Shown here: piece by piece, positions 1,084 to 38,673 of the stretch
Position numbering within the stretch: the first letter of the stretch is position 1
How the letters are laid out: every line of letters starts with the position of its first letter
Virus record (IMG/VR): IMGVR_UViG_2563366824_000007
Reading direction: 5' to 3' (one strand)
Length of the DNA: 43,405 bases
Source of the DNA: a virus
Taxonomy: Duplodnaviria; Heunggongvirae; Uroviricota; Caudoviricetes
The notes under the pieces: model-generated
Told to the model about the DNA's origin: nothing
Databases searched by the model: none
What the model saw: only the letters and a program-made list of their open reading frames with translations
Program-made: the position numbers and the translations under genes

Positions 1084-1244
1084 TTTATCAGTTCGCTCCC
1101 ATCCGTACCAGTCCGCAAAATCCCCTGAATATCAAGCCTTCCGTATATTCACGGTTCGTCATGGTTCGCGTCAGATCGTTGACAGCCGCACACCATGACG
1201 GGTAAAAAGTGGATAAAATAATTTTACCCACCGGATTTTTACCC

Positions 1245-2402
1245 ATGCTCACCGTTAAGCAGATTGAAGCAGCAAAGCCGAAAGAAAAACCATACCGCCT
1301 TCTCGATGGTAATGGCCTGTACCTTTATGTCCCTGTATCCGGGAAAAAGGTATGGCAGCTTCGCTACAAGATTGACGGTAAGGAGAAAATACTGACCGTC
1401 GGAAAATATCCGCTTATGACTTTGCAAGAGGCAAGGGATAAAGCATGGACTGCGAGGAAAGACATCTCGGTTGGCATCGATCCGGTAAAGGCGAAAAAGG
1501 CTTCGTCTAACAACAATTCCTTTAGTGCGATTTACAAGGAATGGTACGAGCATAAGAGGCAAGTCTGGTCAGCCGCCTATGCGACTGAACTTGCAAAAAT
1601 GTTTGATGACGACATTTTACCTATCATCGGCGGCCTTGAAATTCAGGATATTGAGCCGATGCAACTGCTGGAAGTAATCCGCAGATTTGAAGATCGCGGG
1701 GCAATGGAGCGAGCCAACAAAGCACGCAGAAGATGCGGCGAGGTTTTCCGTTACGCTATTGTCACCGGAAGGGCTAAATATAACCCGGCACCTGACCTTG
1801 CTGACGCCATGAAGGGATACCGCAAGAAGAACTTCCCGTTTTTACCTGCCGACCAGATCCCGGCATTCAACAAAGCACTTGCAACATTTTCAGGAAGTAT
1901 CGTATCTCTCATTGCGACCAAAGTTTTACGCTACACAGCACTAAGAACAAAAGAGCTTCGTTCCATGCAATGGAAGAACGTCGATTTTGAAAACAGGATT
2001 ATCACCATCGAGGCCAGTGTGATGAAGGGACGCAAGATTCATGTGGTTCCGATGTCGGACCAGGTTGTTGAACTTCTCACTACGCTAAGCTCCATCACTA
2101 AACCAGTATCAGAGTTTGTTTTTGCCGGGCGCAACGATAAGAAGAAGTCAATCTGCGAGAACGCGGTATTGCTTGTGATCAAACAAATCGGCTATGAGGG
2201 TCTGGAAAGCGGTCACGGATTCAGGCATGAATTCAGCACAATTATGAACGAGCACGAATGGCCTGCTGACGCTATTGAAGTGCAACTGGCACATGCCAAC
2301 GGCGGATCTGTGCGTGGTATTTACAACCATGCTCAGTATCTCGATAAGCGCAGAGAAATGATGCAGTGGTGGGCGGACTGGCTTGATGAAAAGGTGGAGT
2401 GA
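1245..2402 (+). CDS. intS: P4-type tyrosine integrase (IntS-like)
   Basis: N-terminal arm-binding region and C-terminal catalytic motifs (HGFRH ... Y); sits directly 3' of the tRNA; track ORF begins at GTG 1209, in-frame ATG at 1245 preferred. Confidence 0.9.
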   Translation: MLTVKQIEAAKPKEKPYRLLDGNGLYLYVPVSGKKVWQLRYKIDGKEKILTVGKYPLMTLQEARDKAWTARKDISVGIDPVKAKKASSNNNSFSAIYKEWYEHKRQVWSAAYATELAKMFDDDILPIIGGLEIQDIEPMQLLEVIRRFEDRGAMERANKARRRCGEVFRYAIVTGRAKYNPAPDLADAMKGYRKKNFPFLPADQIPAFNKALATFSGSIVSLIATKVLRYTALRTKELRSMQWKNVDFENRIITIEASVMKGRKIHVVPMSDQVVELLTTLSSITKPVSEFVFAGRNDKKKSICENAVLLVIKQIGYEGLESGHGFRHEFSTIMNEHEWPADAIEVQLAHANGGSVRGIYNHAQYLDKRREMMQWWADWLDEKVE

Positions 2403-2551
2403 CCCACCTTAAATACCGAAGAGCACAAAGCCTTGCAATCCAGTGCAAAGCTTTGCGTACCAGAGTTTTTCCTCATCAACTACCGCAAGTATCGATCGAT
2501 TGAGACTTGGATGATAGACTTCATGCCTTTCAGAACTCATTGATTAAATAA

Positions 2552-2914
2552 ATGTTAAATATATTTGCAAGGTACACCTCGATTGGTGTGCTGAACACAC
2601 TTATACACTGGGTGGTTTTTGGTGTATGTATCTATGCCGCGCATACCAATCAGGCTCTGGCAAACTTCGCAGGTTTCGTTGTGGCTGTGAGTTTTAGCTT
2701 CTTCGCGAATGCAAAATTCACATTCAAAGCATCAACTACAACGATGCGCTACATGTTATATGTCGGGTTCATGGGAACACTGAGTGCTACTGTTGGATGG
2801 GCTGCTGATAGATGCGCACTTCCTCCGATGATAACTCTTGTCACCTTCTCCGCCATCAGCCTGGTGTGCGGTTTCGTCTATTCAAAGTTCATTGTCTTTA
2901 GGGATGCGAAATGA
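2552..2914 (+). CDS. gtrA: GtrA-family bactoprenol-linked glucose translocase (flippase)
   Basis: 120-aa small 4-TM protein, first gene of a three-gene operon next to int; overlaps the next gene by 4 nt. Confidence 0.85.
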
Positions 2915-3828
2915 AAATTTCTTTAGTCGTTCCGGTCTTTAACGAAGAGGCCACGATACCTATTTTTTATAAAACCGTGCGCGAATTTGAAGGGCTTCAG
3001 CAGCATGAAGTCGAGATAGTCTTCATAAACGATGGCAGCAAAGACGCTACAGAATCAATTATCAACGAGCTTGCTGTTGCCGACCCGCTTGTGGTTTCGC
3101 TGTCGTTCACACGTAACTTCGGCAAAGAACCTGCCCTGTTCGCAGGTCTGGACCATGCTACCGGGGAGGCAATTATCCCGATTGACGTTGATCTGCAAGA
3201 CCCTATCGAAGTTATTCCTCACTTGATAGAGAAATGGCAGGCCGGTGCAGATATGGTTCTGGCTAAACGCTCTGACCGCTCCACTGACAGCAGGCTGAAG
3301 CGTAAATCTGCTGAGTGGTTCTATAAACTTCATAACAAAATCAGCACCCCTCAGATAGAAGAGAATGTTGGCGACTTCCGGCTCATGTCTCGCGAAGTAG
3401 TGGAAAACATTAAGCTCATGCCAGAACGAAACCTGTTTATGAAGGGTGTGCTGAGCTGGGTTGGTGGTCGAACCGAAGTCGTAGAATATGCGCGAGCAGA
3501 ACGCGTTGCAGGAAGCACAAAGTTCAATGGATGGAAGCTCTGGAACTTGGCGCTGGAAGGGATCACTAGCTTCTCAACATTCCCGCTGCGCATGTGGACC
3601 TATATTGGGTTATTTATTGCATGTATATCATTTACATACGGTTCATGGATGATAATTGATAAATTAATTTTTGGTAATAATGTACCTGGATACCCTTCAA
3701 TTCTTGTATCAATATTATTTCTTGGCGGCATCCAGTTAATTGGTATTGGAGTGCTAGGTGAGTACATAGGGCGTATCTACGTTGAGGTTAAGCAGCGTCC
3801 AAAGTATATATTAAAGGATAATAAATAA
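2911..3828 (+). CDS. gtrB: GtrB-family bactoprenol glucosyltransferase (GT2)
   Basis: 305 aa with GT2-like N-terminal region (VVPVFNEE ... DGSKD ... DVDLQDP) and two C-terminal TM helices; stop overlaps the gtrC ATG. Confidence 0.9.
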
Positions 3829-5285
3829 TGATTTTCAAAAAACAAATTAAATTTATATTCGTAATTTTATTATTTGCGTCATTATTTATGCTATATCACT
3901 TTGCCAGCTTAAACATATTCCCACCAAATACAGATGCGGCAACAGTGCTTTTGCTTGGTAAGGATATGTCAGAAGGTAATTACTTACTTCATGGATGGAT
4001 GCTATCCACGGTTCCTTTTTACTTTACAGAAGTATCTTTTTATGCGATCGCCTCTATATTATTTGGCTACAGCAGTGAGCTTGCATATATAATACCACCA
4101 GCGATGTATGCTACTGTGATATTTTTGATATACAGGCTGTCTACAAATAAATCATTAGCATTAGCGCTAATTATATTCTACTTTGTTTTTCCTGCTGACA
4201 TGGCTGTTACATCAATGCTTTCAGCGTGCATTCACATGGGTACATACATATTTATCATTGGATGCTTAATATTTACAGAAAAGTATATTAAAACAGAAAA
4301 AATATTATTTGTATACTTTTCAACCATACTGTCCTCTATGGCTATTTTTAGCGATAATATCTCAGTCTATATATACGTTGCACCGCTAACATTAGCAGCA
4401 ATGTTTTTGTTGCACAAGGAAAGAAAAAAGAAATACCTTATTATAATGGCTGGATTGTTTTCTTCATATTTAATTTCCAAGGCGATCGGTTTTTTGTTTT
4501 TAAACCTTGGAAGCTTTACATTGCCAGGACTAACAGATGTAAAGATTGTTGAGTATGACAATATTTTAGTTAATATAAATACCGCAGTAAGTGGAACTTT
4601 ATTGTTTTTTAATGCAGACATATTTGGTGAGCAGATAACACCATCACTGCATCTATTATCTAAAGCAATACGCTTTGCTGGTGTTGTTGCATTAATTTAC
4701 TTCACTTTCAGAAATCTTTTTAAAAACAGAAGCGTTATTGATATATGTTTGTCATTGTCTATTTTAATCATGACATCTGCTTATATTGGTAGTAACCTCC
4801 CAAGAAATATATGGACAATAAGATACCTTGTTCCCGTCTTCATTATGGCAGTAATTCTTTTGTCAAGATCTAAATTTAATAAAAAAAGCATTATTTTATT
4901 AATAGCTTTTTTGGGCATCATATCAGGAATTAAAACAATAAATATTAATGGCTCCACTGATAATAGATACAATCAGATATCATGTATTAGAGAAAAAATC
5001 AACGAGCACAAAGTGAATTATGGATATGCCCCTTTTGCATTTACCAACTCTGTTGGTGTGAATGGAGACATAAAAATAGCAAATATACTTTTTGATAACA
5101 ATGAAATTAAAAGAGACAACTGGCTTACAAATAGCGAATGGTATAACAAAGGAAATAATTTCTTTATTCTTGAGAATAAAGAACAATTGAATATTGTGAA
5201 GAAAATTTATGGTCAACCTGAAGATATTGAAAGTGTGTGTGATGTGATTTTTGTCAAATACAGAAACCACATTTACGTCAAATAA
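3828..5285 (+). CDS. GtrC-type serotype-specific O-antigen glucosyltransferase (specificity unknown)
   Basis: 485-aa polytopic membrane protein in the third position of the gtr operon; AT-rich relative to flanking genes; translationally coupled to gtrB. Confidence 0.65.
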   Translation: MIFKKQIKFIFVILLFASLFMLYHFASLNIFPPNTDAATVLLLGKDMSEGNYLLHGWMLSTVPFYFTEVSFYAIASILFGYSSELAYIIPPAMYATVIFLIYRLSTNKSLALALIIFYFVFPADMAVTSMLSACIHMGTYIFIIGCLIFTEKYIKTEKILFVYFSTILSSMAIFSDNISVYIYVAPLTLAAMFLLHKERKKKYLIIMAGLFSSYLISKAIGFLFLNLGSFTLPGLTDVKIVEYDNILVNINTAVSGTLLFFNADIFGEQITPSLHLLSKAIRFAGVVALIYFTFRNLFKNRSVIDICLSLSILIMTSAYIGSNLPRNIWTIRYLVPVFIMAVILLSRSKFNKKSIILLIAFLGIISGIKTININGSTDNRYNQISCIREKINEHKVNYGYAPFAFTNSVGVNGDIKIANILFDNNEIKRDNWLTNSEWYNKGNNFFILENKEQLNIVKKIYGQPEDIESVCDVIFVKYRNHIYVK

Positions 5286-28312: not shown

Positions 28313-28500
28313 AGCCTCACCTCCGCAAATAACGGATGGTGTACACGGTTCGGAACGAAGAGGAAAGGTATAGAAGTTACATTAGCGTAAGGCTTGAACA
28401 TCTATTCAAAAAGAAAAACGCCAGCGATTATTCTGGCGTAGCTGAAAGCATCATACAATTATCAAATACGAAAATTACAAAATCATTAAAACGCATCACG

Positions 28501-29232
28501 TTACATCATGTCTTTTTCTAAAAAAAATCTTGATGAATATTGATGGGGAGGAACACCAAAATATCTTCTGAAAACACTCACAAAATATGACGTGTTTTCA
28601 TAACCGCATATCTCAGCAACTTTTCCAACAGAATATAAATTGTAACTTAATAACCTTTCCGCCATCACCATTCGCTCTTCAAGAATTAACTTACTAAATG
28701 ATAAGCCTTCGTGCTTTAATTTTCTTTTTAACAGACTTTCACTCAGATACAGTCTTGAAGATATATCACAAAGTCTCCATGCTGCAGATATATCCGTGTG
28801 AATAATAGCCTTAACTTTACTTCCTAAACTATTAAGACATCCAAATAAAAAACTTTGCACTATTTTCTCTGAAGATAAGATAGCAAGACATGCAAGTGAT
28901 ATTTGATTTCTAACAAAATCCACAGTTCTGCCATCACAATTCAAGCATGCAATCAAGTTCTTTAACAATGAAAAATCTTCACATTCCACCATCAAGTATG
29001 CCGGATAAAACCTTCTTACAGAAAAAGGTGAGAGTGTGTTGCTTTTAAAGAAATCATTAACTGTTTTCTCTTCAACATCTACGATCATTACATGATCTAT
29101 ATTTGATGAAAAAAAATCTTTTAAATTGTAATCAATGAGAACAGCACTTCCTTTTTTAAACAAAATATCTTCTTTACCAATTCGGACATCAAACGAGTTC
29201 AACACCAAAATGATAGAACATATGTATGGCAT
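28501..29232 (-). CDS. AraC/XylS-family transcriptional regulator
   Basis: C-terminal AraC-type HTH (...GKVAEICGYENTSYFVSVFRRYFGVPP...); very AT-rich; ATG at 29232 with AGGTGG ribosome-binding site preferred over track GTG 29241. Confidence 0.8.
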   Translation of the reverse strand: MPYICSIILVLNSFDVRIGKEDILFKKGSAVLIDYNLKDFFSSNIDHVMIVDVEEKTVNDFFKSNTLSPFSVRRFYPAYLMVECEDFSLLKNLIACLNCDGRTVDFVRNQISLACLAILSSEKIVQSFLFGCLNSLGSKVKAIIHTDISAAWRLCDISSRLYLSESLLKRKLKHEGLSFSKLILEERMVMAERLLSYNLYSVGKVAEICGYENTSYFVSVFRRYFGVPPHQYSSRFFLEKDMM

Positions 29233-29583
29233 ATTATCCACCTGATATCATTGGGGTTACACCAGGTAAGTATAGGTGGAAAATCAATATTCGCCAGTTC
29301 AACAATAAGGAAAATTTCATTGCATCACAAGTATAAAATTATGTATTTAACTCACAAAGACAAATTATTAAACCAATCTGTTATATTATATATAGCTGCG
29401 TGGAATCATAATATTATATATTTTGACTGGCATGTTTACCAACTTTAAGTTGCATCTCAATTGTTTCTTCAGCGTAAACAGAGTTTTTATACAAACTGAC
29501 ACTCTGGGTATCATAGTGTAGTTTTTACGATTGTAAATATCCTGCATGCAGGAACTCATCCTTTTGGATGATATCGCATACAA

Positions 29584-30543
29584 TTAATTTACCATCAGTC
29601 TTAGAGCCAGTTCGTCCGGATAGGGATCGAAGTAATTCTGTGTAAGCAAGTAATCATTAGGATACTCACCCAGATAATGCTTCAGCAGAGTCAACGGCGC
29701 AAGAAGAGGTAATGTGCCAGAACGATAGTTAAGTATAACCTCGCTCAACTCTTTACGCTGGCGTGTACTTAAGTAGTTACTAAAATACCCCTGTATATGC
29801 ATCAGCACATTCGTGTGATTTTTACGTGATGCAGGTTTTCTGAGAATCGCCATCAGCTTATCACGATACACCTCAAAGTATGATTCAAGGTCCGCCCACT
29901 CGTGTATTGCAGCCACAAATGGTCCCATATCTTTATAGCCTGCCTGACTATGCGCCAACAACTGAAGCTTATAACGACTATGAAAAGCTAATAACTCTCT
30001 TCTTGATAATTTCTCCTTGTAAAGGTGATTGAGCTCATGCAAAGCAAAAACTCTTTCAACAAAATTCTCACGAAGCACTGGATCATGTAATCGCCCATCC
30101 TCTTCAACCGGTAGCCAGGAAAACTTTTCCATCAAAGTACTCGTAAATAGTCCCACTCCATCTTTACGACCTCGATTACCATTTTCATCATAGACACGCA
30201 CGCGCTCCATGCCACAGCTGGGAGATTTAGCACAAACCACAACCCCCGATACATCCTTTAATTTGTCCATATAAGAACGACTAAACTCTGTCATTCTCTC
30301 TGTCACATCCTCATTCTGGTCGTGGCTGAAACACATCCGTATATTTCCTTGCGTCGAGCGCACAAGACGTAGAGCAGGACGCGGAACTGGCAGCCCTATA
30401 GCCATTTCCGGACATACTGGTCTGAATGTTACCCATTCCACTAATTTGTCCATTAAAAAGTCAGCTCTTTTGTGACCACCATCAAAACGAACAGCAGAAC
30501 CGGCCAAACAACCGCTGATTCCAATCACAGGTTTTTTTATCAT
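29584..30543 (-). CDS. DUF523 (TudS-like) - DUF1722 (YbgA-like) fusion protein
   Basis: 319 aa; N-terminal Cys-containing motifs (GISGCL ... CPE ... CAKSPSCG) consistent with a TudS-type Fe-S domain, YbgA-like C-terminal half; GGGGGAG ribosome-binding site. Confidence 0.65.
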   Translation of the reverse strand: MIKKPVIGISGCLAGSAVRFDGGHKRADFLMDKLVEWVTFRPVCPEMAIGLPVPRPALRLVRSTQGNIRMCFSHDQNEDVTERMTEFSRSYMDKLKDVSGVVVCAKSPSCGMERVRVYDENGNRGRKDGVGLFTSTLMEKFSWLPVEEDGRLHDPVLRENFVERVFALHELNHLYKEKLSRRELLAFHSRYKLQLLAHSQAGYKDMGPFVAAIHEWADLESYFEVYRDKLMAILRKPASRKNHTNVLMHIQGYFSNYLSTRQRKELSEVILNYRSGTLPLLAPLTLLKHYLGEYPNDYLLTQNYFDPYPDELALRLMVN

Positions 30544-30735
30544 ATTCTCCCCCTTGACTAATTCATTAACACATAAACTGTGTAGTGCACGGAATAAATT
30601 GCCTTTCTGGCGTCATCACTGACAATTTTTCTGTTATGGACTATTCCTAATATAGTATGAAAGTTCTTTAAGTGATCGGTCGTAATCATCTATCTTTCAT
30701 ACTTACTCTCAACTATCAAAAGTACAGGATTTATT

Positions 30736-31260
30736 ATGAAGTTATGGCCTGTGTTGACTGGCATTGCACTCTCTTTCACTCTTATAGCATGTAAGGCCCC
30801 GACACCACCTAAAGGTGTGCAGCCGATTACAAATTTTGACGCCAACCGCTACCTCGGAAAATGGTATGAAATAGCTCGCCTCGAGAACCGGTTCGAACGT
30901 GATCTGGAACAGGTCAGCGCTACTTATGGAAAACGGAACGACGGAGGGATTCGTGTACTTAACCGTGGATACGATCCAACGAAAAATAAATGGAGCGAGA
31001 GCGAAGGTAAAGCATACTTTACTGGAGATACTAAAACTGCAGCATTGAAGGTTTCGTTTTTTGGCCCCTTCTATGGTGGCTATAATGTAATCAAACTGGA
31101 TGATGAGTATAAGTATGCTCTTGTCAGTGGTCCGAACAGAGAATACCTATGGATTCTGGCAAGGACCCCAACTATTCCAGATAAAGTAAAAGCAGACTAT
31201 GTGCGAACCGCTCAAAAGTTGGGATTCAATGTCAATGAATTATTATGGGTTAAACAATAA
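30736..31260 (+). CDS. blc: Outer-membrane lipocalin Blc paralog
   Basis: 174 aa; lipoprotein signal (LIAC) and lipocalin motifs (NFDANRYLGKWYEIARLENRFER ... FFGPFYGGYNVI ... YLWILAR) closely resembling E. coli Blc. Confidence 0.85.
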   Translation: MKLWPVLTGIALSFTLIACKAPTPPKGVQPITNFDANRYLGKWYEIARLENRFERDLEQVSATYGKRNDGGIRVLNRGYDPTKNKWSESEGKAYFTGDTKTAALKVSFFGPFYGGYNVIKLDDEYKYALVSGPNREYLWILARTPTIPDKVKADYVRTAQKLGFNVNELLWVKQ

Positions 31261-31288
31261 AATCCCTACCCGAAATAATACTTATTAG

Positions 31289-31315
31289 AAAAAAACCAGC
31301 CTTTGGGGAGGCTGG
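31289..31315 (-). terminator. tR'-like intrinsic terminator downstream of the late promoter
   Basis: Minus-strand hairpin CCAGCC-loop-GGCTGG followed by a 7-U run; about 60 nt downstream of the putative late start. Confidence 0.55.
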
Positions 31316-36925: not shown

Positions 36926-36990
36926 AACTAAGTTTTATTAGATGCTAATTACAAATCTATCTTTGGTCAATAAAAACTAAGATTACTTAG
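36926..36990. promoter_or_regulatory. OR-like operator/promoter region between cro and cI
   Basis: Palindromes ATTAGatgCTAAT (36937..36949) and CTAAGattaCTTAG (36977..36990) plus an AACTAAG half-site; minus-strand TTGACC -17- TAGCAT promoter overlaps the first palindrome. Confidence 0.6.
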
Positions 36991-37012: not shown

Positions 37013-37639
37013 ATGGAAACGGTTGGTCAGCGTATAAAAGCTCTGAGAAGAGTTACCGGAACGTCCCAGAAAGAATTGGGTAAATTTTGTGGAGTAAGCG
37101 ACGTTGCTGTGGGGTACTGGGAGAAAGACATCAATACTCCTGGTGGGGAGGCACTTTCGAAATTAGCGAAGTTCTTCAATACGTCAATAGATTACATTCT
37201 TTATGGTGCTGAGTTTGAAGGCAAACTCGTCACAAACATGCGCAGAGTTCCTGTAATATCGTGGGTTCAGGCTGGGCAGTTTACTGAGTGCAGGGCAGCA
37301 GAAGTGTTTAGTGAAGTGGACAAGTGGGTAGATACATCATTAAAGATTGGTGATAACTCATTTGCATTAGAGGTTAAAGGTGACTCCATGACTAACCCTA
37401 ATGGCCTCCCAACAATACCAGAAGGCGCAACAGTGATTGTAGATCCAGATGCAGAACCTCGTCATGGAAAAATAGTCATCGCTCGACTTGATGGAACAAA
37501 CGAAGCTACAGTAAAAAAATTAGTCATCGATGGCCCTCAAAAGTTTTTAGTGCCATTAAATCCTCGGTATCCCAACATCCCTATCAATGGTAATTGCCTT
37601 ATCATTGGTGTAGTCAAAGGAGTTCAATACGAACTCTAA
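37013..37639 (+). CDS. CI-like repressor (HTH plus S24 LexA-type autopeptidase domain)
   Basis: 208 aa; N-terminal HTH (QKELGKFCGVSDVAVGYWE), C-terminal peptidase region with GDSM serine motif and a downstream Lys. Confidence 0.88.
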   Translation: METVGQRIKALRRVTGTSQKELGKFCGVSDVAVGYWEKDINTPGGEALSKLAKFFNTSIDYILYGAEFEGKLVTNMRRVPVISWVQAGQFTECRAAEVFSEVDKWVDTSLKIGDNSFALEVKGDSMTNPNGLPTIPEGATVIVDPDAEPRHGKIVIARLDGTNEATVKKLVIDGPQKFLVPLNPRYPNIPINGNCLIIGVVKGVQYEL

Positions 37640-37653
37640 GACCTCTCTTCTCT

Positions 37654-37721
37654 AACTAAGGCACCGAACTAAGAAAAGTTTGGTGTTTTCTCTTGCCATA
37701 ATAACTAAGTTAAGTTAGATT
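37654..37721 (+). promoter_or_regulatory. OL/PL-like operator-promoter downstream of cI
   Basis: Three further AACTAAG repeats (37654, 37667, 37703) and a rightward TTGCCA -17- TAGATT promoter (37693..37721) with half-sites in the spacer. Confidence 0.5.
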
Positions 37722-37845
37722 TTATATCAAAGATAACGAACAGGCAGGACGCCCACGAAGTAGCCGCCTGGGGCATATGACGTCCAGGATGATTCGTTGA
37801 GTCATGTTGTGCCACCAGGCACTCATGTTAAAGCAGGTGTATGAA

Positions 37846-38121
37846 ATGAAAGTCCAGATTTTAAACAATAACTGTGAAGTCGTTTGGTCATACGACATAG
37901 CCGCCCCTGTAGATCAGAGCGGCGATAGCTGGACCAATGGGAAACATCAGATTATGGCTGGAGTTGTGTTCTCTTTACGCCGTGCTTTGGAACAGGCTGA
38001 AGTATTTCCATCAGACCCTGAATGGAAATGGCCTTTTTCTATTTGTCCAAATTCGGAGAGCACATTTCAGAAAATTGGTCAGAAAGTCGCACTCGAAGAG
38101 CATCAGCCAACTGTTTCCTGA
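37846..38121 (+). CDS. Hypothetical protein, first ORF downstream of cI
   Basis: 91-aa ORF from ATG 37846 with AGGTG ribosome-binding site (track start 37804 lacks one); AT-rich; no recognised family. Confidence 0.5.
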   Translation: MKVQILNNNCEVVWSYDIAAPVDQSGDSWTNGKHQIMAGVVFSLRRALEQAEVFPSDPEWKWPFSICPNSESTFQKIGQKVALEEHQPTVS

Positions 38122-38284
38122 TTTTTTCAGGTAACTCGTCGGCATCGCAGAAACAACAACGCTCGATCATGTTGAAAGCCGATTCGTAGAACTGTTTCTG
38201 CTGAGTGTCGCTGAGACAGGAAAAGAGCGACGTTACGATGATTTTATTAATTGCATTATCAAGTTCTTTTTCATCAAAAGTCAT
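38039..38284 (-). CDS. Hypothetical acidic protein, convergent with and overlapping the previous ORF
   Basis: 81-aa ORF with ATG and AAGGA ribosome-binding site; 3' end overlaps the plus-strand ORF by 83 nt; Cys pair CCFC; AT-rich. Confidence 0.45.
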   Translation of the reverse strand: MTFDEKELDNAINKIIVTSLFSCLSDTQQKQFYESAFNMIERCCFCDADELPEKIRKQLADALRVRLSDQFSEMCSPNLDK

Positions 38285-38539
38285 TTGATTTTCCTTTTAT
38301 GTATACGGGCTTAAAAGGATACCACCGAGCCTGAAGTGGTGAAAAGACAGGCACATAACAGCTAAGTATTTTCAACCAAAGAGAATCCTTAGCGTTGTGG
38401 TGAATGCGGCTCAGCGCACGCGGGTTAAGGTTGAGGCTGACAGTCGACCTTCTGTGGATACCCACCCGCCTGGTGTGCAACCTTCGCCAGGCACCGGGAG
38501 GCACCCGGCACCACAACTTTATGCTGTGTGTAGTCTTGG

Positions 38540-38584
38540 CGGTACCAGCTTATACCCTTGCTTCCGGCTGGTACCGTCCTTTTT
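38540..38584 (+). terminator. Intrinsic terminator in the early leader (tL1-like)
   Basis: 10-bp GC-rich stem CGGTACCAGC / GCTGGTACCG with 17-nt loop, followed by CC-TTTTT. Confidence 0.6.
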
Positions 38585-38673
38585 ACAAAACAGAGAAGAG
38601 CATCACCGGACGACGGGCTCATAACCCAATCCATCCGGGCGGCAGTCACCGCAGGTGTTCTTCTCTGTTTTGT
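38585..38673 (+). other. Long perfect inverted repeat (15-19 bp stem, about 50-nt spacer) upstream of yfdP
   Basis: ACAAAACAGAGAAGA at 38585..38599 pairs perfectly with TCTTCTCTGTTTTGT at 38659..38673; the stem extends with G-U pairs. Confidence 0.6.

Follow-up and report, generated by a model that had tools for sequence, protein, structure and literature searches.

A conserved convergent gene pair with a dual-coding overlap in a variable slot of SfV/e14-type lambdoid prophages

Introduction

In phage lambda, the rexAB genes lie between cI and OL/PL, are co-transcribed with cI and both run in the same direction, and RexB is a membrane protein; SieB is a membrane protein as well. Here we analyse a pair of small convergent genes with overlapping 3′ ends (hereafter the module, consisting of a plus gene and a minus gene named after their coding strands) in IMG/VR virus record IMGVR_UViG_2563366824_000007. 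The whole stretch of 43,405 nucleotides (nt), referred to as the window, is an SfV/e14-type lambdoid prophage.

Opposite-strand gene arrangements of related kinds have been described in other prophages. In the Tha/Ith system of Staphylococcus aureus phage 80alpha, antisense transcription makes expression in lysogeny and in lysis mutually exclusive (Rostol et al. 2024, PMC11087260), with Tha being a HEPN RNase encoded in the cI operon and ith having its own constitutive promoter (PMC11087260). In the sieB/esc/sas system of P22 and lambda, a comparable logic has been described for P22, with an RNA and an internal product (cited in PMC7067206), sieB being expressed in the lysogen and controlled by the antisense RNA sas. 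In Escherichia coli K-12, the prophage gene pairs ymfI-ymfJ and sieB-ydaF belong to a core set of convergent overlapping transcripts, termed excludons, that is present in at least 50% of 58 RNA sequencing (RNA-seq) sets (PMC12288877). The module shares one of the properties that define excludons, convergent neighbours with necessarily overlapping transcription units: the coding regions overlap by 83 nt, and a terminator and promoter scan finds no terminator-like site between the two genes.

Both genes of the module are under purifying selection

The initial annotation of this region described two convergent open reading frames (ORFs) of 91 and 81 amino acids (aa) with an 83-nt 3′ overlap, each preceded by a good ribosome-binding site. 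The coordinates prove exact, and the sites are AGGTG, 7 nt 5′ of the plus start codon, and AAGGAAA, 5′ of the minus start codon. Both ORFs begin with ATG (Table 1). The same annotation called the ORFs AT-rich, which holds in direction, the guanine-plus-cytosine (GC) content of the module being 42.8% against 49.9% for the window, and is a modest difference only.

From one start codon to the other, the module spans exactly 439 nt, free of insertions and deletions, in seven loci that share only about 67–70% nucleotide identity with the window; these come from Salmonella (L004), Yersinia (L096-98), Klebsiella (L099) and three metagenomic or isolate lineages (L006, L009, L010/11). Mean pairwise variation among the gapless loci, split by codon phase, is 0.25/0.15/0.42 over offsets 0–191, with the maximum at codon position 3 of the plus gene, and 0.21/0.48/0.16 over offsets 276–438, with the maximum at codon position 3 of the minus gene. 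By the Nei-Gojobori method, the ratio of nonsynonymous to synonymous variation (pN/pS) in the plus-only part comes to 0.33 when read in the plus frame and to 1.73 in the wrong-strand control; in the minus-only part it comes to 0.27 when read in the minus frame and to 1.38 in the control. The switch in codon phase and the contrast of both ratios with the 1.4–1.7 of the controls show that each protein is under selection where it alone is encoded. Within the overlap, all three codon phases are low in variation at offsets 225–255. The quiet core of 30–45 nt (38071–38115), which reads ..GQKVALEE.. in the plus protein and ..ALRVRL.. in the minus protein, is constrained in every phase and corresponds to invariant columns in the alignments of both proteins. 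The ATG and the Shine-Dalgarno sequence (SD) of both genes are conserved in all loci. Both ORFs are real, selected genes, of which we have very little doubt. Irrespective of function, the module illustrates cleanly how two proteins, each subject to purifying selection, can share a dual-coding stretch.

The two genes occur together at every locus examined, in five genera and down to 26–46% aa identity. The most distant versions (L100, L101 and L102) retain both ORFs in converging orientation, with overlaps of 137–149 nt, and the overlap ranges from 74 to 176 nt across all loci. In database searches, every contig that carries a diverged homologue of either protein also carries the partner. At a coverage of at least 80%, the module is found in 425 of 5,426 complete E. 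coli genomes (about 8%), including that of enterotoxigenic E. coli H10407. A scan of viral contigs returned 80 near-identical copies and no added diversity, and the sole locus returned by a scan of genome representatives with the plus alignment was spurious.

Annotation of the module is mostly limited to one of its genes. A single coding sequence (CDS) lies under the module in 59 of 60 sampled RefSeq records. One of these records, a chromosome with 100% identity, was examined closely, and there the single CDS called by the Prokaryotic Genome Annotation Pipeline (PGAP) is the plus ORF. SfV likewise annotates only the plus ORF (orf33), and phage vB_EcoM-720R4 only the minus ORF. The minus gene appears to be omitted from most RefSeq annotations.

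Proteins encoded by the module

The plus protein matches phrog_3195 with an E-value of 3.8e-65 over profile positions 8–98 of 98. Every homologue of the plus protein begins with MKVQ, which makes 37846 the conserved start and the 98-aa form in SfV orf33 and phrog_3195, which starts 7 codons earlier at 37825, over-extended; the start of SfV orf33 is therefore mis-set, whatever the function of the protein. The stop codon is not conserved among loci. Some variants are 122 aa long, and we rejected these as the true protein: the extension is most variable at plus codon position 2 and is unconstrained in the plus frame. AlphaFold2 (AF2) produces a poor model for the plus protein, with a predicted local distance difference test score (pLDDT) of 62, in which a beta-hairpin is followed by helices. 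The match of its N-terminus to the beta-propeller protein P0070 reflects a repeated beta-hairpin motif, not homology. Two distant homologues of the plus protein (L100 3501–4079; P0064 and P0065) have an N-terminal ‘MEFKDLP...’ extension of about 85–90 aa. This extension shows a weak resemblance to a stand-alone gene of 66 aa that follows the module in L009, which may hint at a fusion.

The minus protein matches phrog_3311 with an E-value of 1.2e-55 over positions 1–81 of 81, and homologues are found in Salmonella, Klebsiella and Yersinia. The best AF2 model, at a pLDDT of 77.6, predicts three helices, and the remaining four models score 58–63. Its RCCFCDAD motif was considered as a metal site and dismissed, as a single Cys is invariant in distant homologues. 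Source records call the protein “cation transport regulator ChaB” or “phage tail protein”; these names are spurious, Pfam giving no match to ChaB.

The two PHROGs, both of unknown function, are the sole family matches for the module, and both proteins are acidic, hydrophilic and soluble, with isoelectric points of 4.6–5.0. For either protein, we found no HEPN domain (no Pfam match and empty fold searches), no match to SieB-type families in Pfam, PHROGs or PADLOC, and no match to RexA or RexB in PADLOC, Pfam or NCBIfam, with no membrane component among the two. Pfam, NCBIfam and PADLOC also give no match to toxin or antitoxin families, and the genes are convergent rather than arranged in a co-directional operon.

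Position relative to the repressor and the PL-like promoter

The local gene order in the window is cI, the plus gene, the minus gene on the opposite strand, an STnc100-like small RNA (sRNA) and yfdP, and cro, a cII-like gene and an O-like gene lie on the minus strand at 34.8–36.9 kb (Table 1). The cI terminator ends in a U-run, and the SfV record annotates a terminator at the same place. With one mismatch at most, the palindromic operator motif CTAAGnnnnCTTAG occurs in the 43-kb window only at 36928 and 36977, which is OR between cI and cro, and at 37705. Because the cI terminator, the operator and the PL-like promoter all precede the plus ORF, the plus gene very likely heads a repressor-controlled early-left operon, the position of N in lambda, as judged from sequence features. 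The minus gene is antisense within this operon. The initial annotation assigned the pair to the rex position; the same three elements intervene between cI and the plus ORF and remove that assignment.

Table 1 Features of the module and its surroundings in the window.
Feature	Position	Strand	Evidence or remark
cI-type repressor (HTH_3 + Peptidase_S24)	37013..37639	+	Pfam PF00717 9e-28, PF01381 1e-10
Terminator hairpin of cI transcript, then UUUUCUCUU	37658..37689	+	Fold -15.1 kcal/mol, z -2.6
PL-like promoter TTGCCA-17-TAGATT	37693..37721	+	Promoter scan
14-bp operator CTAAGTTAAGTTAG	37705-37718	.	Overlaps -10 of PL-like promoter
Conserved structured leader RNA of early-left transcript	37735..37799	+	Left flank of slot; about 65 nt
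Plus gene	37846..38121	+	91 aa; SfV orf33 core, phrog_3195
Dual-coding 3′ overlap	38039..38121	both strands	83 nt
Minus gene	38039..38284	-	81 aa; phrog_3311; predicted three-helix protein
Conserved 5′ region of minus gene	38285..38352	-	Two hairpins; alignment of 10 loci
Hairpin 2 of minus 5′ region	38293-38318	-	CCTTTT/AAAAGG, covers Shine-Dalgarno
Hairpin 1 of minus 5′ region	38321-38340	-	ACCAC/GTGGT
Candidate antisense promoter TTGGTT-16-(TGt)TATGTG	38352..38379	-	Conserved right flank; read from sequence
STnc100/PasD-like prophage sRNA region	38372..38587	+	Right neighbour of slot; Rfam RF02076

The surroundings of the module in relatives are variable in content and constant in polarity. 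Plus homologues with 33–64% identity occupy the same position in other lambdoid prophages, and in all relatives the plus gene comes first or second after the repressor and is without exception oriented early-left. The repressors of these relatives are S24-type or short and HTH-only, and the downstream genes are kilR-gam, DUF1482-exoVIII, ydfE or yfdPQR, followed by xis-int. One Salmonella prophage that carries the module (L004) additionally encodes, at 2552–3706, a 384-aa HSDR_N protein whose gene stands between repressor and leader, which is the true rex position. The only PADLOC match of this protein is faint and is to the N-terminus of a type IIG restriction endonuclease-methyltransferase (E 0.006).

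The early-left transcript is expected to begin with a conserved structured leader of three helices, in which 8 of 14 base pairs show compensatory changes (RNAalifold, 18 variants) and the U·G wobbles fit the plus strand only. The leader is present and unannotated in e14, SfV, SfII, ST64B, the Yersinia YeP phages, Citrobacter phiNP and Pantoea AH07, and an Rfam search assigns it to no family. Its role may lie in processing, antitermination or regulation. A scan flagged 37756–37740 as a minus-strand terminator, a reading disfavoured by the wobble pattern, which points to a plus-strand RNA. We also rejected a homologue of HK022 put or a nut-like pair, as a covariance model of the leader matches no further site in the window and has no match in HK022.

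The slot and its flanks

Among e14/SfV-type phages, similarity to the window ends at about 37798 and restarts at about 38316–38322, delimiting a slot with the leader as its left flank and the sRNA region as its right neighbour. The slot of e14 holds ymfJ on the plus strand and ymfI on the minus strand, with a 63-nt overlap, and that of EC19 and phage Kati holds a 68-aa gene on the plus strand and an ECs1072-family gene on the minus strand, with a 29-nt overlap. The annotated slot gene of SfII and PhiR29_1 is on the minus strand only, that of mEp460_4F5 is a plus-only helix-turn-helix gene, and ST64B shares the leader and has an empty slot. In Rac, the order is racR, ydaG, ydaF, then sieB on the opposite strand with a 4-nt overlap, then the KilS sRNA and kilR. 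The proteins of the different cassettes are unrelated: when the module proteins were compared by hhalign with those of the other cassettes (YmfJ, YmfI, the ECs1072-family protein and SfII_36), no homology was detected, the probability against YmfJ and YmfI staying below 1%. The module is a mobile two-gene cassette in a variable slot heading the PL operon of e14/SfV/Rac/Qin-type lambdoid prophages.

Two different convergent overlapping cassettes in tandem were seen within one prophage in Yersinia (L096-L098, 3336–3826 and 4001–4439), where the module is followed by the leader element and then by a ymfJ/ymfI-like pair. The sRNA region to the right of the slot matches RF02076 over its full length with 42.4 bits, just below the gathering score of 47 (E 3.7e-7), and a weak DicF-like match lies at its 3′ end (38525–38579). 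The ‘ymfH’ CDS of K-12 and a PGAP ‘frameshifted hypothetical protein’ overlie this region and are probably not protein genes.

Conservation on the right side of the slot extends into the 5′ region of the minus gene. On the minus strand, the sequence ...TTGGTTGAAAATACTTAGCTGTTATGTGCCTGTCTTTTCACCACTTCAGGCTCGGTGGTAT... ahead of this gene has nearly identical counterparts ahead of e14 ymfI and SfII_36 and a recognisably related one ahead of the ECs1072-family gene; unrelated cassettes share the sequence from 38316 rightwards. The 3′ part of the upstream region, comprising GCCTGTCTTTT and the ACCAC/GTGGT hairpin, travels with the module even in diverged backbones. The second hairpin, beside or over the SD, varies in sequence from cassette to cassette, and the minimum free energy fold of the region in the window pairs the SD. 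The minus-strand interval 38316–38380 looks like an antisense promoter and leader serving whichever minus-strand gene fills the slot, the promoter being a candidate recognised by its sequence. This interval stands back to back with the sRNA region.

Expression at the slot in related prophages

Published data on relatives with the same slot bear on both strands. The RNA and protein of e14 ymfJ rise late in the SOS response, as do those of other e14 genes under CI-like control (PMC11002266), and prophage-inducing stress leads in ST64B to induction of an sRNA and of the genes that lie downstream of CI (PMC7067206). The data from e14, Rac and ST64B support the view that PL controls the plus strand and that both strands are transcribed at the slot, not a clean reciprocity between them, as far as these relatives can stand for the window.

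Other features of the window

The interval 1209–5285 of the window contains an integrase gene, gtrA, gtrB and a low-GC type-specific gene of 485 aa without a Pfam match. This gtrABC set makes up a module for O-antigen serotype conversion like those of SfV and CPS-53. A low-GC (30–44%) island at 28500–31300, by the lysozyme gene, encodes an AraC-family regulator, a DUF1722/2-thiouracil-desulfurase-like protein and a lipocalin, and is likely a moron cluster.

Discussion

We favour, at a probability of about 0.45, an overall picture in which a lysogen-phase accessory protein is combined with a cognate early-lytic partner and the two are expressed in opposite phases. Two fixed convergent promoters would bracket a compact cassette. 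The plus gene would be transcribed from the repressor-controlled PL-like promoter and hence made only on derepression or infection, and the minus gene would probably be transcribed from the right-flank promoter through a two-hairpin 5′ leader, which would permit its synthesis in the lysogen. Because the genes converge, share 74–176 nt and have no terminator between them, the two transcripts are mutually antisense, so that the antisense interplay envisaged by the initial annotation is a natural consequence of the layout. After induction, a strong PL transcript would traverse the minus gene and its promoter, and in lysogeny the minus transcript would oppose leakage from PL; phase-opposed and mutually interfering expression of this sort is, in our estimate, probable. 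The lysogen-phase protein is possibly of the exclusion type, and the early-lytic partner would relieve or replace it when its own prophage turns lytic. That the pair functions in exclusion or self-immunity at all is doubtful. Unlikely, too, is the specific version in which the module is an unrecognised exclusion or self-immunity system whose 81-aa helical protein, produced during lysogeny from a promoter and leader that the phage group conserves, blocks phages or reprogrammes the host and whose 91-aa protein, with the PL antisense transcript, neutralises it.

A cognate pair is the most economical model because each cassette brings its own early gene and its own antisense gene and because the pair stays intact across five genera. 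We count in its favour the pattern of cassette swapping, with the same flanks holding other convergent overlapping pairs (ymfJ/ymfI and the 68-aa/ECs1072-family genes), and the near-identical minus-strand region that precedes ymfI, SfII_36 and the minus gene. The differing repressors and downstream genes around the conserved pair point the same way, as do the cI terminator, operator and PL-like promoter upstream of the plus gene, the ydaF/sieB arrangement of Rac and the expression data from K-12 and ST64B. Tha/Ith provides a precedent, in which a defence gene expressed in the lysogen is overlapped by a small antisense gene for its inhibitor and transcription of the two is mutually exclusive. 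Several results weigh against this picture. The RNA of ymfI rises modestly in the SOS response (log2 about 2) and shows no late fall, which misfits a simple shut-off (PMC11002266). The pair is not obligatory for the slot, as the plus-only occupant of mEp460_4F5, the minus-only annotated ones of PhiR29_1 and SfII and the empty slot of ST64B demonstrate, and co-inheritance is partly trivial, overlapping genes being inseparable by recombination. A consensus promoter scan calls no promoter for the minus gene. The hairpins in its 5′ untranslated region are suggestive by eye and unsupported by covariation, which in the 10-locus alignment is no better than in shuffles and not significant, and the fold z-score of this region is only -1.3. 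As the initial annotation had indicated in recognising no family, Pfam, NCBIfam and PADLOC have no match for either protein, and profile and model searches, including structure prediction, find no solved structure or fold relative of either. Finally, acidic, soluble proteins are unlike SieB or RexB.

Among the alternatives, the one we take most seriously, and still regard as somewhat unlikely, is that an ordinary early-left gene and a functionally unrelated, equally ordinary lysogen-expressed moron meet at this slot, with their overlap produced by compaction between fixed convergent promoters in the absence of terminators. It accommodates the plus-only, minus-only-annotated and empty slots, the variation of the overlap between 74 and 176 nt, the unconserved plus stop codon and the 122-aa plus extensions that are unconstrained in the plus frame, and physical overlap by itself accounts for co-inheritance. 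It does not sit well with two genes that are intact and under purifying selection at every locus, down to 26–46% identity and in very different backbones, with the repetition of the same design (a small plus gene and a convergent minus gene) by several unrelated cassettes in the slot, or with a 439-nt start-to-start span held exactly across about 30% nucleotide divergence. The roles could also be reversed in a guard pair of toxin–antitoxin-like logic in a convergent layout, the plus protein being a harmful early host-takeover factor and the minus protein, its antisense RNA or both serving as the lysogen's antidote against PL leak. The plus protein, however, is acidic and without a recognisable enzymatic motif. 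Its poor AF2 model provides no structural support for toxicity, neither protein has any likeness to a toxin or antitoxin family, and the gene order differs from that of an autoregulated operon with co-directional genes. These points render a guard pair quite improbable despite the toxic genes such as kilR in the early-left operons of these prophages, a weak Kil-like match, a minus transcript that would be fully antisense to the plus gene and an SD-covering hairpin suggestive of regulated translation. The parallel with toxin–antitoxin or abortive-infection loci drawn by the initial annotation likewise finds no direct support in two small, acidic and soluble proteins with no defence-family match.

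A rexAB-like exclusion system, co-expressed with the repressor in the lysogen, is an explanation to which we give hardly any weight. The pair does come directly after cI on the map and a true rex-position gene does exist in some relatives, such as the HSDR_N gene of L004; that gene precedes the leader and the module, and the plus ORF is separated from cI by the terminator, the operator and the PL-like promoter. Moreover, the proteins are soluble, lack a membrane partner and have no similarity to RexA or RexB or to PADLOC entries, and ymfJ, the e14 equivalent, behaves as a derepressed lytic gene (PMC11002266). It is just as hard to believe that one of the two ORFs is a shadow lying opposite a single real gene. 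Genes do often have an open antisense frame, and PGAP and SfV annotate the plus ORF only while other pipelines annotate the minus ORF only; against this stand the codon-phase switch, the pN/pS values with their controls and the conserved ATG and SD of both ORFs at all loci.

On the unlikely reading of an unrecognised exclusion or self-immunity system, the interval from leader to sRNA in e14/SfV-type prophages would be a dedicated hotspot for cassettes of an effector plus its cognate early antidote. Interchangeable cassettes (ymfI/ymfJ, ECs1072-family/68-aa) would be plugged in behind a universal antisense promoter, and dual-coding overlaps would lock the partners together. If the pair works as we propose, the locus would add a Gram-negative lambdoid example of defence in lysogeny with self-immunity at induction, so far represented by Tha/Ith and BstA/aba, and would offer a well-delimited hotspot for mining cassettes in very common prophages of E. 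coli, Shigella and Salmonella, e14 included. The initial annotation referred to a prophage defence hotspot at this site; a variable accessory-gene hotspot between fixed flanks is what we find, with no match to a defence family.

Comparison with known systems

With lambda rexAB, the module has in common that it is a prophage accessory locus adjoining the repressor gene, whereas co-transcription with cI, genes in the same direction and a membrane-bound RexB are all absent from it. BstA/aba of BTP1-like prophages (PMC8585504) is similar in that a lysogen-expressed gene past the repressor locus comes with a cognate, co-inherited self-immunity element; aba, however, is a DNA element inside bstA and not a protein gene, and BstA is large and shows no similarity to the module proteins.

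Synteny is closer with Rac, where the repressor is followed by one or more small early-left genes, a convergent 3′-overlapping gene, an sRNA and then kil-type genes. The minus gene stands where this synteny places sieB, convergent to a small early-left gene just past the repressor and PL. The proteins differ: SieB has 162 aa and no sequence similarity to the soluble, acidic, helical minus protein of 81 aa, and YdaF is a DUF1391 protein unrelated to the plus protein, with an overlap in Rac of only 4 nt. The ymfJ/ymfI pair of e14 shares the slot, the left leader and the right flank including the minus-strand upstream region, and is convergent with a 63-nt overlap. It has no detectable homology to either module protein.

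The likeness to Tha/Ith lies in the overlap of an accessory prophage gene with a small opposite-strand gene, the small partner in Tha/Ith protecting the prophage from its own system. Neither module protein resembles Tha or Ith, and the polarity is reversed here, the lytic gene being the member within the big regulated operon, so that the analogy is one of architecture only.

Defining features of the Rex, SieB, toxin–antitoxin and Tha families are absent from the module, which is not a member of any of them. Its architecture is of a known kind, a prophage accessory excludon at the sieB slot with a noncontiguous antisense arrangement of the Tha/Ith type. The two protein families and the particular dual-coding pair that they form are previously uncharacterised.

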